From a virus (lineage: Duplodnaviria; Heunggongvirae; Uroviricota; Caudoviricetes), in the IMG/VR virus record IMGVR_UViG_2778261527_000009, positions 1-5,114 of that record: a DNA stretch of 5,114 nucleotides; one strand, given 5' to 3'. Below are positions 1 to 5,114 of the stretch, one piece after another. Position numbers and translations under genes: made by a program. How positions within the stretch are numbered: position 1 is the first letter of the stretch; every line of letters begins with the position of its first letter. The notes under the pieces are model-generated. The model searched no databases and was not told the origin of the DNA. It saw only the letters and a list, made by a program, of their open reading frames with translations.

Positions 1-450
1 TGCTGCATGCTCCTGCAGCTTCGAAATTGAGAGATACAGCTCGTCGTTAATTGCTGTCTTCTCATGCGGTTCCACCACACCGTCTTCGATTGCCGAACGA
101 ATCTGTCTGGAATAACTGCCAATCTGTTCAATGACTTCCAGCAGGCGCTGGTTAATATCGGCGTTGTCCACATCCTCGACGTCAGGAAGAGACACAAAGA
201 CGCCATTTGCAGACTGCGCCACAGCGTCAGCAATGAAGTGAGTTCCACCAGCACGTTGCAAAATCATTGCCCATCCCAGCGGGAAAATCTGATCGCCATC
301 GGCACGAAGGCGGTTAAATAATGCGTTTTCTGTTACATCCAGCCAGTCAGCTGCTTCAGCGTAACCACCCGGCAACGCTGCGATAGTTTTTCTGACAGCT
401 TTCACGTACCACTCAGGCTGTTTTTCTACTTTCCAGTGATGCTTACCCAC
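1..450 (-). CDS. CII-like / YdaT-like lysogeny regulator, partial (3' end runs off the window start); GTG start
   Basis: Minus-strand frame is open from GTG (plus 448-450) to position 1 with no stop (150 codons, hand-translated: VGKHHWKVEKQPEWYVKAVRKTIAALPGGYAEAADWLDVTENALFNRLRADGDQIFPLGW...ISKLQEHAA). Strong SD AGGAGG (plus 457-462, 6 nt spacer). Sits immediately downstream of the cro-like gene, the position held by cII/ydaT in lambdoid prophages. Not in the ORF track because it lacks an in-window stop. Family assignment is from memory of CII(CP76)/YdaT-like proteins, not a search. Confidence 0.5.
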   Translation of the reverse strand, partial: MGKHHWKVEKQPEWYVKAVRKTIAALPGGYAEAADWLDVTENALFNRLRADGDQIFPLGWAMILQRAGGTHFIADAVAQSANGVFVSLPDVEDVDNADINQRLLEVIEQIGSYSRQIRSAIEDGVVEPHEKTAINDELYLSISKLQEHAA

Positions 451-703
451 GGTTCACCTCCTGTTCCTGTGGTTTAAACCCATTCTGGTTTTGGCTAGAT
501 TGAAAACGTGCCGGATAAAGAATCTGCATTTCGCTGACTTCACCCTTAAAAAAATTGGCTAAACGTTCTGCAAGCTCGATAGATGGAATCTGCTCCAGCC
601 TCTCAATACGACTCAACGTCGCTGGATTGACTTGAACACCCGCAGCAACATGCTGCAAAGTGAAACCATGCGCCTTACGCACATTTCGTAATGGTGATTG
701 CAT
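443..703 (-). CDS. Cro-like HTH (XRE family) transcriptional regulator
   Basis: 86-aa ORF, divergent from the repressor gene. The N-terminal segment GFTLQHVAAGVQVNPATLSRIERLEQIPS has the look of an XRE/Cro-type helix-turn-helix. SD GGAGG is 4 nt upstream of the ATG on the minus strand (plus 706-711). Confidence 0.8.
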   Translation of the reverse strand: MQSPLRNVRKAHGFTLQHVAAGVQVNPATLSRIERLEQIPSIELAERLANFFKGEVSEMQILYPARFQSSQNQNGFKPQEQEVNRG

Positions 704-800
704 ACGCCCTCCAAATATTGCGCGTTATGCATGTTATTTCACGCAATTATTTTGCGCAAGTTGATTTGCTTATCACGCAATAAAGAAATGTAATAAACGC
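704..800. promoter_or_regulatory. Divergent cI/cro operator-promoter region (OR-like) with three operator-like 15-mers
   Basis: 97-bp intergenic region between divergent cro-like and cI-like starts. Three sites fit TTGC-N7-GCAA: 718-732 (reverse orientation, ATGCATAACGCGCAA), 733-747 (TGTTATTTCACGCAA, weaker left half) and 767-781 (TTGCTTATCACGCAA). A perfect 8-bp palindrome TTGCGCAA lies at 752-759. Putative cI promoter: -35 TTGCTT 767-772, -10 TGTAAT 789-794. Putative cro promoter on the minus strand around 731-759. Confidence 0.55.
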
Positions 801-1493
801 ATGAACATAGGAAACCGAGTCAGACAACTTCGCCAAGCGAAGAACATGAAAATCGCCGATCTCGCTGAAGCAATAGGAGTAGATGCGGCGAACATCTCGC
901 GCTTAGAAACGGGTAAGCAAAAACAATTTACCGAACAAACACTGAGTAATATTGCCAAGAGCTTAGGTGTTGATATTGCTGATCTCTTTACCTCTGCCCA
1001 CAAAAGTAATACTGTATATAAAAACAGTAATGATGAGGATGTTGCGCAGGTGAAGGATGTGTTCCGTATTGAAATGCTGGATATCAGTGCCAGTGCGGGA
1101 AATGGCCTTATCCAGGGCGGTGATGTCATTGATGTGATTCATGCCATCGAATACAGAACTGATAATGCTGTATCAATGTTCGGCGGACGACCAGCCAATC
1201 ACATCAAAGTTATCAACGTTCGTGGGGACAGTATGTGTCCAACCATTGAGCCAGGAGATCTCATCTTCGTTGATGTCAGCATCAATCAGTTTGATGGTGA
1301 TGGTATATATGTCTTTGGTTTTGATGACAAAATATACGTTAAAAGACTTCAAATGATTCCTGACAAACTGCTGGTGATTTCTGATAACCAGATTTACCGT
1401 GAATGGGGAATTACTAGCGAAAACGAACACCGATTCATGGTCTTTGGAAAGGTCTTAATCAGTCAGTCGCAAACCCTTAAGAGACATAATTAA
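801..1493 (+). CDS. CI-like phage repressor (N-terminal HTH_XRE, C-terminal S24 LexA-like autopeptidase domain)
   Basis: 230 aa. N-terminal HTH (KIADLAEAIGVDAANISRLETG). Ala99-Gly100 is a candidate cleavage site. Ser144 in GDSM and Lys181 in VKRL are 37 residues apart, the same Ser-Lys spacing as LexA. No SD precedes the ATG, consistent with a leaderless PRM-type transcript. Confidence 0.9.
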   Translation: MNIGNRVRQLRQAKNMKIADLAEAIGVDAANISRLETGKQKQFTEQTLSNIAKSLGVDIADLFTSAHKSNTVYKNSNDEDVAQVKDVFRIEMLDISASAGNGLIQGGDVIDVIHAIEYRTDNAVSMFGGRPANHIKVINVRGDSMCPTIEPGDLIFVDVSINQFDGDGIYVFGFDDKIYVKRLQMIPDKLLVISDNQIYREWGITSENEHRFMVFGKVLISQSQTLKRHN

Positions 1494-1511
1494 CCTCAAT
1501 ATCCTTCCATC

Positions 1512-1536
1512 GGCCACCGAAAGGTGGCTTTTTATT
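1512..1536 (+). terminator. Rho-independent terminator downstream of cI
   Basis: GGCCACC (1512-1518), GAAA tetraloop (1519-1522), GGTGGC (1523-1528), followed by TTTTTATT. Lies 19 nt after the cI stop. Confidence 0.8.
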
Positions 1537-1546
1537 ACCTATCAAT

Positions 1547-1597
1547 TTGCATATCCCGCAAATATCACTTGCATATCTCGCAATTTAATTTTATCTT
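1547..1597 (+). promoter_or_regulatory. OL/PL-like element: two operator-like 15-mers overlapping a putative rightward promoter
   Basis: Direct repeats TTGCATATCCCGCAA (1547-1561) and TTGCATATCTCGCAA (1569-1583), 22 bp centre to centre, matching the 15-mer family seen between cI and cro. Putative -35 TTGCAT (1569-1574), 17-bp spacer, -10 TATCTT (1592-1597). Confidence 0.45.
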
Positions 1598-1744
1598 TTG
1601 TTCCAGACCAACTACAGGATTACAACAAAATCTGGTTGCAACACGGTGCATGTGTCGTAAGCAGTCAGTAAATGTCAAAAACGAACAGGCAGGACGCCCA
1701 CGAAGTAGCCGCCTGGGGCATATGAAGTCCAGGATGATTCGTTA

Positions 1745-1772
1745 GCAACAAAAAAGCGCCCTACAGGACGCT
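1745..1772 (-). terminator. Rho-independent terminator for leftward transcripts
   Basis: On the minus strand: 7-bp stem AGCGTCC/GGGCGCT (one G-U pair), loop TGTA, then TTTTTGTTGC. On the plus strand the same hairpin has a C-A mismatch and no clean U-tract, so it is better formed on the minus strand. Confidence 0.5.
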
Positions 1773-1774
1773 TA

Positions 1775-1786
1775 GCTCTTTAACAA
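1775..1786 (+). promoter_or_regulatory. boxA-like antitermination element (rrn/nut type), immediately after a hairpin
   Basis: GCTCTTTAACAA (1775-1786) is an exact match to the E. coli rrn boxA core (NusB/NusE binding sequence). It lies in the leader between the PL-like promoter and the first downstream gene and is preceded by the hairpin at 1755-1772, the boxB-then-boxA order of rrn leaders. Confidence 0.4.
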
Positions 1787-1831
1787 TCTGGTCCCCATCA
1801 ACAAGTAACTGATAACTTGAGGAGGTGTGAA

Positions 1832-2038
1832 ATGCACAAAACAGAACCCAAAATCGTCGCGCCCGGATACACAAATGAGGAAATTTACGAGTGGATGGCA
1901 AAGAAGCTGGCAGCTATAAACCAGCTTCGTGAAGTGCTGTCTTATCGACAGGAAATAATAGACTCCTTAAAAAAACTGGATCAGGAAATCACGGTTTTAT
2001 CACAGGATGTTACTTTAGATATTGTGCAGACAAATTAG
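1832..2038 (+). CDS. Hypothetical small protein (68 aa), moron-like
   Basis: ATG at 1832 preceded by a strong SD GAGGAGG (1819-1825, 6-nt spacer). The track's TTG at 1817 is unlikely to be the real start. AT-rich relative to flanks. Product MHKTEPKIVAPGYTNEEIYEWMAKK...; no family recognised. Confidence 0.55.
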   Translation: MHKTEPKIVAPGYTNEEIYEWMAKKLAAINQLREVLSYRQEIIDSLKKLDQEITVLSQDVTLDIVQTN

Positions 2039-2444
2039 GATCCCATTCATTTTCGTCAAAATCATCAAAGTGATGAATTTGTGATCTCCAGTCTCGATAA
2101 TCTAAAAATTTCTGGGCGGTTACGCTTATTTTATCAAGTGTGAGTTCATCCTGAATTGAAAGAAGAAGTTCATCAAATTTCATCTCATTAATCTGTTTTG
2201 GCATCCAGTGATGCTTCATCAGAATAAGGTGAACCAGAGCCTTTTTCCCATTCAACTGATTATAGGGAGTGCCGAATTTCTTCCGGTGCTCATGTAAGAC
2301 AAGGTCCAGAAGAGTAAGTAATGTTGCCCTTGATTCGACTTTGCTTATTTCGACTGATGACACTACCCCACTGATTTCAATGCCCCGATACTTTCCAACA
2401 TTTTCACAGTGGGATTTGTACAGCGTGTAGATATTACCGGACAT
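2010..2444 (-). CDS. Hypothetical protein (144 aa), convergent with and overlapping the 68-aa gene; candidate moron/exclusion gene
   Basis: 144-aa ORF with a mixed, protein-like composition. Weak SD (AAGGAAA) about 6 nt upstream of the ATG on the minus strand. AT-rich. Overlaps the 3' end of the 68-aa gene by 29 nt. No family recognised from memory. Confidence 0.6.
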   Translation of the reverse strand: MSGNIYTLYKSHCENVGKYRGIEISGVVSSVEISKVESRATLLTLLDLVLHEHRKKFGTPYNQLNGKKALVHLILMKHHWMPKQINEMKFDELLLSIQDELTLDKISVTAQKFLDYRDWRSQIHHFDDFDENEWDPNLSAQYLK

Positions 2445-2459
2445 TTCTTTTCCTTTTGC

Positions 2460-2511
2460 GTTGTTGGGGATAACCAGATTAACCGAATCCTTGTTGTTGG
2501 GGAATAACCAG
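2460..2511. repeat. Two near-identical direct repeats (18/19 bp) upstream of the 144-aa gene
   Basis: GTTGTTGGGGATAACCAG (2460-2477) and GTTGTTGGGGAATAACCAG (2493-2511), identical apart from one inserted A, 33 bp apart. They lie 16-67 nt upstream of the minus-strand ATG at 2444. Confidence 0.6.
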
Positions 2512-2805
2512 GTCCACCTCGCCTGATGTGGCTAAAAGCAGGCACATAACAGCTAAGTATTTTCAACCAGAGAGAATCCTTAGCGTTGTGGTGAATGCGG
2601 CTCAGCGCACGCGGGTTAAGGTTGAGGCTGACAGTCGACCTTCTGTGGATACCCACCCGCCTGGTGTGCAACCTTCGCCAGGCACCGGGAGGCACCCGGC
2701 ACCACAACTTTATGCTGTGTGTAGTCCTGGCGGTACCAGTTTGTACCCTTGCTTCCGGCTGGCATCCCCGCACCACTGAAACGACTTCTTCCTGACTATA
2801 AACGG

Positions 2806-3066
2806 ATGGAAGAAAAAATAGACGCCGTAATCCGTGAGAAATACGGGTTACCTCCTGTTATGAGCACGCCAGTGAAATATGCCGATCTCATTATGCTGGC
2901 AACCGAACGCCGCGATCTCGGGCTTGATGATGGCTCTTTCTGGCCTGTGCTGGAAGGTATCCCGGCAACAGAGATGTTCAACGTGATTCCACTGGCTCCA
3001 GGCCATGCCTACGGGATGTTTATGGAACGCTTTAACGAATTATCGGAGTTACGCAAATGCGCATGA
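2806..3066 (+). CDS. HD-domain phosphohydrolase C-terminal remnant (YfdR/YfbR-like), N-terminally truncated; possibly a pseudogene
   Basis: The frame is open from 2725 (stop at 2722-2724) to the stop at 3064-3066. The product contains TPVKY and ADLIMLATERRDL, resembling the C-terminal half of YfbR/YfdR-type 5'-deoxynucleotidases, but no H...HD metal-binding motif is encoded upstream in any frame. First in-frame ATG is 2806 (weak SD); the track's TTG at 2749 is an alternative. Confidence 0.45.
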   Translation: MEEKIDAVIREKYGLPPVMSTPVKYADLIMLATERRDLGLDDGSFWPVLEGIPATEMFNVIPLAPGHAYGMFMERFNELSELRKCA

Positions 3067-3419
3067 ATGTTTTCGAAATGGAAGGGTTTCTTCGTGGGAG
3101 ATGTGTACCGCGAGATCTGAAAGTGAATGAAACGGATGCTGAATACCTAGTGCGTAAATTCGATGCGCTTGAAGCTAAATGTGCAGCACAGGAAAACAAA
3201 GTAATACCAGTGTCAACTGAACTGCCACCAGCAAATGAAAGTGTTTTGTTATTCGATGCTAACGGAGAAGGCTGGCTAATTGGCTGGCGTTCTCTCTGGT
3301 ACACCTGGGGACAAAAAGAAACCGGAGAATGGCAGTGGACATTTCAGGTCGGGGACCTTGAAAACGTCAATATCACTCACTGGGCAGTAATGCCAAAAGC
3401 ACCGGAGGCTGGAGCATAA
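3057..3419 (+). CDS. DUF551-like phage early protein (120 aa; resembles the CPS-53 YfdS class)
   Basis: 120-aa ORF, SD GGAG (3044-3047). Start overlaps the upstream stop (ATG 3057, upstream TGA 3064-3066). Trp-rich C-terminus (WLIGWRSLWYTWGQKETGEWQW) typical of DUF551 proteins in lambdoid early regions. Resemblance is from memory, not a search. Confidence 0.7.
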   Translation: MRMNVFEMEGFLRGRCVPRDLKVNETDAEYLVRKFDALEAKCAAQENKVIPVSTELPPANESVLLFDANGEGWLIGWRSLWYTWGQKETGEWQWTFQVGDLENVNITHWAVMPKAPEAGA

Positions 3420-3724
3420 TGACCACTTTTACCGACAAAGAACTGATTAAAGAAATTAAAGAGCGTATCAGCAGCCTTGACGTGCGAGACGATATTGAGC
3501 GCCGTGCTTATGAAATCGCACTCCTATCTCTGGAAGTAGAACCAGATGAACGCGAAGCTTATGAATTATTCATGGAAAAGCGTTTTGGTGACTTAGTAGA
3601 TCGTCGGAGAGCAAAAAACGGCGATAACGAATACATGGCATGGAATATGACTCTCGGTTGGATCGTCTGGCAGCAACGAGCTGGTATCCATTTCTCAACA
3701 ATCTCACAGCAAGAGGTGAAATAA
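3419..3724 (+). CDS. Hypothetical phage early protein (101 aa; resembles the CPS-53 YfdT class)
   Basis: 101-aa ORF with TAATG stop/start overlap with the upstream gene at 3417-3421. SD GGAG at 3411-3414. Confidence 0.65.
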   Translation: MTTFTDKELIKEIKERISSLDVRDDIERRAYEIALLSLEVEPDEREAYELFMEKRFGDLVDRRRAKNGDNEYMAWNMTLGWIVWQQRAGIHFSTISQQEVK

Positions 3725-4074
3725 TGGAGCCATACAGCCTCACACTCGATGAGGCCTGTCATTTTCTCAAGATATCCAGACCGACTGCCATTAACTGGAT
3801 ACGCACAGGGCGTCTTCAGGCAACACGCAAAGATCCCACTAAGAATAAATCTCCTTACCTCACAACACGACAAGCCTGCATTGCGGCTCTTCAGTCTCCG
3901 CTGCATACTGTCCAGGTGAGCGCGGGTGATGGCATAACAGAGGAAAGAAAATGTCACTCTTCCGCAGAGGTGAAATATGGTACGCCAGTTTCACATTGCC
4001 GAACGGTAAAAGATTTAAACAGTCTCTTGGAACAAAGGACAAAAGGCAGGCGACAGAACTCCATGACAAGCTAA
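3724..4074 (+). CDS. xis: Excisionase (Xis), HTH DNA-binding, P22-type
   Basis: 116 aa starting [31 protein letters not shown], an excisionase-type HTH. TAATG overlap with the upstream gene at 3722-3726. Lies directly upstream of int and overlaps it. Length matches P22 Xis as I recall it. The track's longer ORF from 3640 is an in-frame upstream extension. Confidence 0.8.
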
Positions 4075-5114
4075 AGGCTGAAGCATGGCGGGTCAGCAAA
4101 CTTGGTGAAATACCTGATATAACGTTCGAGGAAGCGTGTGTCAGGTGGCTTGAAGAGAAAGCACATAAAAAATCACTGGACGATGACAAAAGCCGGATCG
4201 GATTCTGGCTTCAACATTTCGCAGGAATGCAACTAAGAGACATTACTGAATCAAAAATTTATTCAGCAATGCAGAAAATGACGAACCGGCGTCATGAGGA
4301 AAACTGGAAACTCAGGGCAGAAGCATGCAGAAAAAAAGGGAAACCTGTTCCAGAATACACGCCAAAACCAGCGTCCGTTGCAACGAAGGCTACGCATCTT
4401 TCATTTATAAAGGCCCTACTAAGAGCCGCAGAGCGTGAATGGAAAATGCTGGATAAGGCACCAATTATTAAAGTGCCTCAACCAAAGAATAAACGGATCC
4501 GCTGGCTGGAGCCCCATGAAGCACAAAGGCTGATTGATGAATGTCCGGAGCCATTAAAGTCTGTTGTTGAATTTGCACTGGCAACAGGCTTAAGACGCTC
4601 GAACATCATCAACCTTGAATGGCAACAAATAGATATGCAGCGCCGGGTGGCATGGATAAACCCGGAAGAGAGTAAATCAAACCGCGCAATTGGCGTTGCG
4701 CTGAATGATACTGCATGTCGCGTATTGAAAAAACAAATCGGGAATCATCACCGTTGGGTATTTGTGTACAAGGAAAGCTGTACCAAACCAGACGGAACGA
4801 AAGCGCCAACAGTAAGGAAGATGCGGTATGACGCAAACACAGCCTGGAAAGCGGCGCTGAGACGGGCTGGTATTGATGATTTCAGATTTCACGACTTGAG
4901 ACACACCTGGGCAAGTTGGCTGGTTCAAGCCGGAGTCCCGTTGTCAGTGTTACAGGAAATGGGAGGCTGGGAGTCTATCGAAATGGTTCGTCGATATGCT
5001 CACCTTGCACCTAATCACCTTACCGAACACGCACGGCAAATAGACTCGATCCTGAACCCATCGGTCCCAAATTTGTCCCAGTTAAAAAATAAGGAAGGTA
5101 CAAATGATGTGTAA
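3951..5114 (+). CDS. int: Tyrosine site-specific integrase, P22 Int-like
   Basis: 387 aa with SD AGGA (3941-3944). C-terminal catalytic signature [11 protein letters not shown] ... VRRYAHL (box II His/Arg and the Tyr nucleophile). The N-terminus [46 protein letters not shown] closely matches phage P22 Int as remembered. Confidence 0.95.

Follow-up and report, generated by a model that had tools for sequence, protein, structure and literature searches.

Does the small hairpin at positions 1754 to 1773 of the DNA studied here end a leftward transcript and, if so, which transcription unit does it close, and what would such a transcript do to the gene on the opposite strand that it crosses? The DNA, referred to as the window, comprises 5,114 nucleotides (nt), i.e. 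positions 1 to 5,114 of the IMG/VR virus record IMGVR_UViG_2778261527_000009 (Caudoviricetes), and covers the stretch from the immunity region to the integrase gene in a lambdoid prophage of the SfIV/SfII/SfV/e14 type. In the original prediction, which was made from the letters of the window alone, the hairpin was regarded as a terminator placed so that the mRNA of a leftward (minus-strand) gene for a protein of 144 amino acids (aa) would run antisense through the whole of a convergent 68-aa gene. Our analysis supports this interpretation in part. On balance, we favour the view that the hairpin is a Rho-independent terminator, which closes a leftward cassette nested against the operon of the early-left promoter PL, the latter reading along the plus strand of the window.

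The hairpin and the frame that it closes

On the minus strand, the site 1773->1754 reads as DNA AAGCGTCC-TGTA-GGGCGCTT followed by TTTTGTTGCT, and it was the top-ranked terminator-like site of the window (eight pairs, five being G-C, around a 4-nt loop) in a consensus scan that returned 10 sites compared with 4.8 +/- 2.2 in shuffled sequences. The corresponding RNA, AAGCGUCC-UGUA-GGGCGCUU, folds into an uninterrupted stem of 8 base pairs (bp) with one G.U pair (-14.1 kcal/mol) and leads into a tract of six U residues (1750..1755, minus strand; A6 on the plus strand), which includes the U residues of the stem's last two A-U pairs and continues with GUUGCU. On the plus strand, c1759 stands opposite a1768 as a C.A mismatch at the place of the G.U pair, the stem is broken (-8.0 kcal/mol), and it is followed by UUAGCUCUUUAAC, without a run of U that could serve as a U tract. 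An intrinsic terminator is recognised by a G+C-rich stem of ~5-14 bp with a short loop, a U tract and a location downstream of a co-oriented gene, and all three are found on the minus strand. The strand asymmetry that had been described at the outset is thereby borne out, with a stem of 8 bp instead of 7 bp. When the whole window was scanned against Rfam with E values up to 1, nothing was detected at the hairpin or at the structured element to its left, and the only hit was an STnc100-like region further to the right. Judged by its sequence, the hairpin looks like a leftward-only intrinsic terminator of an ordinary kind.

Viral contigs were scanned twice, once with the hairpin and once with the leader at the right-hand end of the cassette as the anchor, and each scan returned at least 120 loci. 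Loci anchored on the leader repeat numbered at least 171, and the hairpin was present in at least 140 of these viral contigs. The hairpin region occurred as 19 sequence variants, in which the loop was free to vary and the stem and the U tract were kept (U6 in 18 of 19). The minus-strand fold amounted to -12 to -15.6 kcal/mol in every variant except L135 (-8.5 kcal/mol), and the plus-strand fold (-6 to -10 kcal/mol) was always the weaker one. Nearly all variants retained the G.U pair, the counterpart of the C.A mismatch on the other strand; in L178 a compensated change swaps the pair for G-C, and the copy from Escherichia albertii (L196) carries a second U.G wobble, which pairs only on the minus strand. 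Both the anatomy of the hairpin and the persistence of its asymmetry across the 19 variants support the proposal that it terminates leftward transcription only.

An alignment with SfV, SfII and SfIV revealed two conserved blocks, 1677-1743 and 2514-2762, which flank a variable cassette at 1744-2513 with borders that are sharp relative to SfV and SfII (1743/1744 and 2513/2514), and the hairpin begins 10 nt within this cassette. Together with the right-hand leader it forms a frame around about ten or more unrelated cargo classes. The main cargo gene is located on the minus strand in every class examined, and its start lies ~25-40 nt left of the leader repeat in most classes. The gap between its stop codon and the hairpin is 23-42 nt in five cargo classes and 92-237 nt in the rest. 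In phage PhiR29_1, an identical hairpin and an identical right-hand leader surround a single minus-strand gene, whose stop codon is 39 nt from the stem, and there is no 68-aa gene. The stop codon of the 144-aa gene, by comparison, is 237 nt away from the hairpin because the 68-aa gene, a member of the YdfC family, fills the gap. The claim that the hairpin serves the unit of the 144-aa gene is upheld by these data, as it is the first intrinsic terminator after position 2010 and as the same frame closes single minus-strand genes at 23-42 nt in PhiR29_1 and four other cargo classes. The further claim that the terminator was placed for this particular gene pair had to be abandoned, the frame being generic and common to about ten or more unrelated cargos. 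We regard the frame as the strongest available evidence for a leftward transcription unit, which would extend from ~2470 to 1750.

The leader, at the right end of the frame, carries CCCCAACAAC repeats. The constant distal copy (2485..2513, minus strand; CCTGGTTATTCCCCAACAACAAGGATTC) is invariant among the at least 171 loci anchored on it and contains a weak -35-like element, TTCCCC (2504->2499). The proximal copy (2458..2482, minus strand) belongs to the 5' leader of the 144-aa gene and holds a putative -10 element, TAATCT (2481->2476). In the cargo classes examined, the -10-like element always conforms to TAnnnT (TAATCT, TATAAT, TATTAT or TAATAT), and it is a perfect TATAAT in L134. The candidate leftward promoter of the window (TTCCCC, 17 nt, TAATCT) is a weak match to the consensus with a score of 5.3.

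The two leader copies also represent the tandemly duplicated right arm, with the proximal copy variable and the distal one invariant, of an inverted repeat that brackets the cargo; the left arm, AATCTGGTCCCCATCAACAAG, is located at 1785..1805 and matches 2458-2482 and 2490-2503. This repeat could clamp the 5' and 3' ends of the RNA together, serve recombination or be a promoter/leader in duplicate. It raises an alternative explanation, according to which leftward termination is secondary and the hairpin and the inverted repeat act chiefly either as DNA, where cassettes would be exchanged by recombination at these sites, or on the plus-strand PL transcript, where they would form a closing stem and so loop out the cargo for processing. 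Consistent with such a role, the arms vary with the cargo class, and each of the distinct types (GGATGACT, GTAACCCTC) pairs most stably with its cognate arm; the duplex is equally stable on both strands (~-25 kcal/mol, no difference in the strand comparison), and the right arm is strongest where it overlaps the putative -10 element, a part that may be absent from the leftward RNA. However, the hairpin consistently favours the minus strand, an asymmetry that neither a DNA site nor a plus-strand element would need, and most cargo classes share one repeat type, with cognate specificity clear for three types only. Moreover, no recombinase gene is associated with the slot, and the uniform minus-strand orientation of the main cargo gives no sign of inversion. 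We therefore consider this explanation highly improbable and retain the terminator as the preferred reading of the hairpin.

Several of the other cargos (L131, L134, L137, L144, L168, L169) are two-gene minus-strand operons within the same frame, in which the first gene encodes a peptide of 27-39 aa, proline-rich in most classes, and the second a protein of 150-189 aa, which starts with MTRDD and has hydrophobic segments resembling two transmembrane helices. Among the other cargo proteins there was no Pfam match at the curated cut-off and no PADLOC match, and the sole weak hint was LprI-like (E = 0.006).

The convergent gene pair and the predicted antisense tail

The cargo of the window is a convergent gene pair, laid out as the original prediction had it. 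The open reading frame (ORF) of the 144-aa protein (2010..2444, minus strand) belongs to the ECs1072 family (NF033230; phrog_5286), with 157.8 bits against the NCBIfam profile (cut-off 70) over profile positions 2-142 of 142. The family has ~65 representatives at the 50% clustering level. An AlphaFold model of the protein is all-helical and confident, with a predicted local distance difference test score (pLDDT) of 93.8; structure comparison with this model returned no informative neighbour, and the protein had no match among defence-system models. The 68-aa gene (1819..2038, plus strand) consists of a Shine-Dalgarno (SD) sequence, GAGGAGG, at 1819-1825 and an ORF at 1832-2038, which matches phrog_1744 (1.8e-33). 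In tblastn searches its product showed 38-39% identity over 97% of its length to genes annotated as ydfC or YdfC family, and the YdfC assignment is made by comparison with these annotated genes. The two ORFs overlap by 29 nt at their 3' ends. Polymorphisms among window-type cassettes, of which the common ones were considered, fall mostly on third codon positions in both ORFs, and by this measure both look coding.

The pair recurs beyond the window. It is present in the E. albertii copy, and a homologous pair at 36% and 35% identity occupies the same frame in L148, again with a convergent overlap of 29 nt. In the K-12 prophage e14 (ymfJ/ymfI) and in SfV (orf33 with an opposite-strand ORF), the slot is filled by other convergent pairs. 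The ECs1072 locus of strain Sakai was considered as a further instance of the pairing and rejected: its large protein had no detectable similarity in pairwise BLAST, the small ORF reached no more than E = 0.003 over 29 residues, and neither was used as evidence.

The 68-aa gene appears to depend on PL. The putative PL promoter (1569-1597, plus strand; TTGCAT, 17 nt, TATCTT) overlaps two exact operator-like TTGC-N7-GCAA sites (1547-1561 and 1569-1583); a third exact copy, the last of the three in the window, is located in the cro-cI intergenic region at 766-780. Since PL overlaps repressor-type operator sites, plus-strand transcription from ~1605 would represent the repressor-controlled early-left operon. 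A promoter scan detected no plus-strand promoter between PL and the start of the 68-aa gene, and we therefore regard the latter as the first ORF of the PL operon and not as a moron gene. Likewise, in phages Evi and PPompW, ydfC homologues are part of the dicA-side early operon, co-oriented with kil and exo. Both genes had initially been taken for morons, a label that does not suit a YdfC-family gene of the PL operon without a promoter of its own, whereas the cassette as such, with its own terminator, is moron-like.

On the minus strand, a combined consensus scan and folding analysis found no second terminator-like site between 2010 and 1773. A transcript that reads through from 2010 and ends at 1750-1755 would by its geometry span all of 1819-2038, and the segment 1774..2009 (minus strand) would constitute an untranslated region (UTR) at the 3' end of the leftward mRNA, antisense to the 68-aa gene and its SD sequence. 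That the leftward transcript does reach the hairpin seems to us somewhat better than an even prospect, and the leftward mRNA probably runs antisense through the 68-aa gene. For the antisense extension envisaged earlier, at roughly 250 nt, the geometry stands: the tail would measure ~256 nt and be complementary to the 68-aa gene over its full length, SD sequence included. The picture needs correcting in that the relation would be reciprocal, with PL transcripts antisense to all of the 144-aa mRNA.

Several points weigh against the favoured reading. The putative promoter is weak with a poor -35 element, its score of 5.3 comparing with 8.9 for the putative PL and 12.5 for PL of SfV. The untranslated tail of 237 nt is a possible Rho substrate, with slightly more C than G in its middle, and an internal 9-bp stem at ~1899-1930 could cause pausing. 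Furthermore, an ECs1072-family gene that is 56% identical (L195) has its own nearby hairpin and no YdfC-like partner, so that the pairing of the 144-aa and 68-aa genes is not obligatory. Neither searches nor the structural model indicate functions for the two proteins, and literature searches for ECs1072, STnc100 and put-like RNAs retrieved no RNA-seq, Term-seq or RACE (rapid amplification of cDNA ends) data for the cassette.

Some of these points agree with an explanation in which the hairpin is a backstop: Rho-dependent termination or processing would end the 144-aa mRNA soon after its stop codon, the hairpin would be an insulator that intercepts rare read-through on its way to OL/PL and cI, and there would be little or no antisense RNA over the 68-aa gene. 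On the minus strand, translation does not extend into the 237 nt past the stop codon, C equals or exceeds G over ~1950-1890, and the hairpin is generic to the frame and not cargo-specific. The five cargo classes that end beside the hairpin also imply that the frame needs no long 3' UTR, but several independent classes keep gaps of 92-237 nt before the same hairpin. Rho loading would, in addition, be disfavoured by the composition of the tail, in which the bias of C over G is slight, U is abundant (85 of 236 nt) and the predicted fold is stable (-70 kcal/mol), and the lack of a second intrinsic terminator after 2010 likewise speaks for the longer transcript. We hold the backstop explanation to be unlikely, albeit deserving of some weight.

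Antisense RNA over the 68-aa gene could also arise independently of the 144-aa mRNA. A promoter-like sequence within the 3' end of the 144-aa gene (TTGACG, 16 nt, TAATTT, 2059->2032) would give rise to a dedicated antisense RNA of ~270 nt that ends at the hairpin, in the style of lambda OOP or P22 sar. Its score of 8.7 is close to that of the putative PL (8.9), and it is conserved in the E. albertii copy. This conservation is, however, explained by its location, as the match lies within codons of the conserved protein motif DENEWDPN. The match is absent from the divergent L148 pair, in which the architecture is nevertheless kept, and the hairpin is also found in cassettes that have no plus-strand gene to regulate. 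A dedicated antisense RNA is thus improbable in our view, and the antisense segment is in the following treated as the 3' UTR of the leftward mRNA.

A working model for lysogeny and induction

The model outlined here starts from what the sequences show, namely the geometry, the asymmetry between the strands, the conservation and the shared frame, and extrapolates to transcripts, promoter activity and a regulatory outcome, all of which are predictions. The frame consists of a right end, the leader with the -10-like TAATCT, and a left end, the terminator, between which cargos are swapped, in the present case the ECs1072-family 144-aa gene in leftward and the YdfC-family 68-aa gene in rightward orientation. 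In the lysogen, the repressor would shut PL and the weak leftward promoter would transcribe the 144-aa gene, with polymerase continuing ~256 nt beyond the stop codon to the terminator. The resulting 3' UTR could pair with transcripts leaking from PL. Being a generic part of the frame, the terminator probably serves mainly for insulation, in that it would bar leftward polymerases from the operator and promoter region OL/PL and from the antisense strand of cI.

Upon induction, the PL transcript would cross the hairpin, which is predicted to be non-terminating in that orientation, and the 68-aa gene would be expressed. At the same time, head-on transcription and a full-length antisense RNA would shut down the 144-aa gene. 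The antisense relation is thus probably reciprocal, and the effect of PL on the cassette is probably the stronger of the two directions; we judge it more consequential because a stable lysogen has little 68-aa mRNA to repress. If the model is true, a one-way terminator insulates the immunity region and the accessory cassette from each other, convergent transcription silences the cassette automatically at the lytic switch, and the 3' UTR of the cassette keeps the early 68-aa gene quiet in the lysogen.

Several known arrangements resemble parts of this model. A moron, as conceived for HK97 and HK022, is an extra gene with its own promoter and terminator between conserved genes, expressed from the prophage. 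The cassette resembles it in having a Rho-independent terminator, a promoter-like element and an orientation independent of the surrounding operon, and, as is typical of a moron, the cassette is present in some close relatives and replaced or absent in others. It differs in that the promoter/leader and the terminator are a fixed frame reused by about ten or more cargos, in the inverted repeat bracketing the cargo, and in that a second, opposite gene belonging to the transcription of the host operon is included here.

Lambda OOP, directed against cII, and P22 sar, directed against ant, are phage cis-antisense RNAs that end at an intrinsic terminator. Similarly, the RNA predicted here would end at a strong terminator and be complementary to a convergent early gene including its start region, and pairing could lower the expression of that gene; in contrast to OOP and sar, no short gene with a conserved promoter is dedicated to antisense RNA, the antisense part being the 3' UTR of a coding mRNA and predicted from geometry. 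As in the switches that work by interference between convergent promoters, pR/pL of coliphage 186 and PR/PRE of lambda, a strong lytic promoter, here PL, faces a weak promoter of the lysogenic state across a region transcribed from both sides, which predicts mutually exclusive expression. In the window, however, the promoters are ~870 nt apart with two ORFs between them, and the weak unit is an accessory cassette and not an immunity gene.

There is also a likeness to ymfJ/ymfI of e14 and to orf33 of SfV, which occupy the same slot between the PL leader RNA and the STnc100-like region and in which a small gene in PL orientation also overlaps a reverse gene; yet these cargos lack the hairpin/leader frame, and between the reverse gene and the leader RNA element there is no terminator. 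The novelty is modest: what is new is that the frame is reusable, that an inverted repeat brackets it and that convergent gene pairs recur in the slot, the terminator itself being ordinary. The cassette was found in 407 of 5,426 complete E. coli genomes. As it is common and as its frame carries about ten or more different cargos, the slot could be a place to seek lysogenic-conversion or exclusion genes.

Flanking RNA elements and prophage context

Just downstream of PL, and ending 3 nt before the U tract of the terminator, lies a structured RNA element with helices P1, P2 and P3 (1678..1747, plus strand). In SfV and in the Yersinia, Pectobacterium and Pantoea phages YeP1, ZF40 and AH07, it follows near-consensus promoters at a distance of 10-20 nt. 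Among the 14 pairs proposed for it, 9 change on both sides, values that none of 500 shuffles reached, and the signal collapses in slid controls; P1 and P3 in particular show many compensatory changes. A covariance model finds one copy per related locus and one in K-12 e14, and a further copy on the PR side was not detected in any of the loci examined.

The element resembles put of HK022 in being ~70 nt long and structured, in lying 10-70 nt after the start of PL, in its covariation-backed helices and in that the regions compared contain no N-like gene. Homology with put was rejected: blastn gave no match, and the covariance model found neither putL nor putR with filters off and E values up to 10, the motif CAGGAUGA being all that is shared. 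Since the model misses putL/putR, we consider the element a positional analogue of put and not a demonstrated member. The element follows repressor genes in phages of Escherichia, Shigella, Salmonella, Yersinia, Pectobacterium, Pantoea and Klebsiella and in K-12 e14. A diverged copy was also observed at ~140-205 in the terminal repeat of a virulent phage, the T5-like Providencia phage PR1 (L200), ~15 nt downstream of a strong promoter (TTGCTT, 16 nt, TATACT). Judged by this sequence, the leader RNA element may well work outside lambdoid phages, as the L200 copy suggests.

Taken jointly, the elements of the slot invite a more far-reaching interpretation, which we consider rather unlikely in its entirety. 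An undescribed modular reverse-cassette frame would head the PL operon of SfV/e14-type phages, its leftward promoter/leader and its strand-specific terminator being fixed and the cargos between them exchangeable, and the inverted repeat would be functional as an RNA 5'-3' clamp or as a site of cassette exchange. The convergent small gene would be the PL-expressed partner, for example an antidote or a switch, of the cargo expressed in the lysogen, the two being mutually exclusive through antisense transcription, and the PL leader RNA would represent a new class of put-like antiterminators, which lets PL run through the cassette.

To the left of PL, the window contains a cro-like gene (443-703, minus strand), a cI-like repressor gene (801-1493, plus strand) with helix-turn-helix and S24 peptidase domains, and the terminator of the repressor gene, which was identified by the consensus scan (1512-1529, plus strand). 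The TTGC-N7-GCAA sites at 718-780 and 1547-1583 define the operators OR and OL of this immunity type.

To the right of the cassette, a truncated gene for a deoxynucleoside monophosphate (dNMP) phosphatase is followed by DUF551-type genes, xis and int. The ORF at 2809-3063 (plus strand, within 2763-3066) represents only the C-terminal 85 residues of the YfdR-like dNMP phosphatase, and the similarity to SfV breaks off where the STnc100 region ends and resumes in the middle of orf30; from this jump we conclude that yfdP/yfdQ-like genes and the 5' half of the phosphatase gene have been lost from this prophage.

The conserved right flank of the slot comprises the STnc100-like small RNA (sRNA) region (2563..2748, plus strand), which matches Rfam family RF02076 over its full length with 35.6 bits (E = 3.5e-05), a value below the gathering score of 47. 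STnc100/PasD is a known prophage sRNA family, and the region is, judged by this match, probably a diverged relative within that group. The K-12 prophage e14 (L193, locus 5228-6181) likewise carries a near-consensus PL, followed by the leader RNA, ymfJ/ymfI and, ahead of ymfH, an STnc100-like region; its RefSeq record annotates none of these RNA elements. An STnc100-like region adjoins the cassette slot in e14 and in those SfV-like phages of Shigella and E. coli that were examined; in the window, a small conserved hairpin (CCAC-N10-GTGG, 2514-2531) lies ahead of it.

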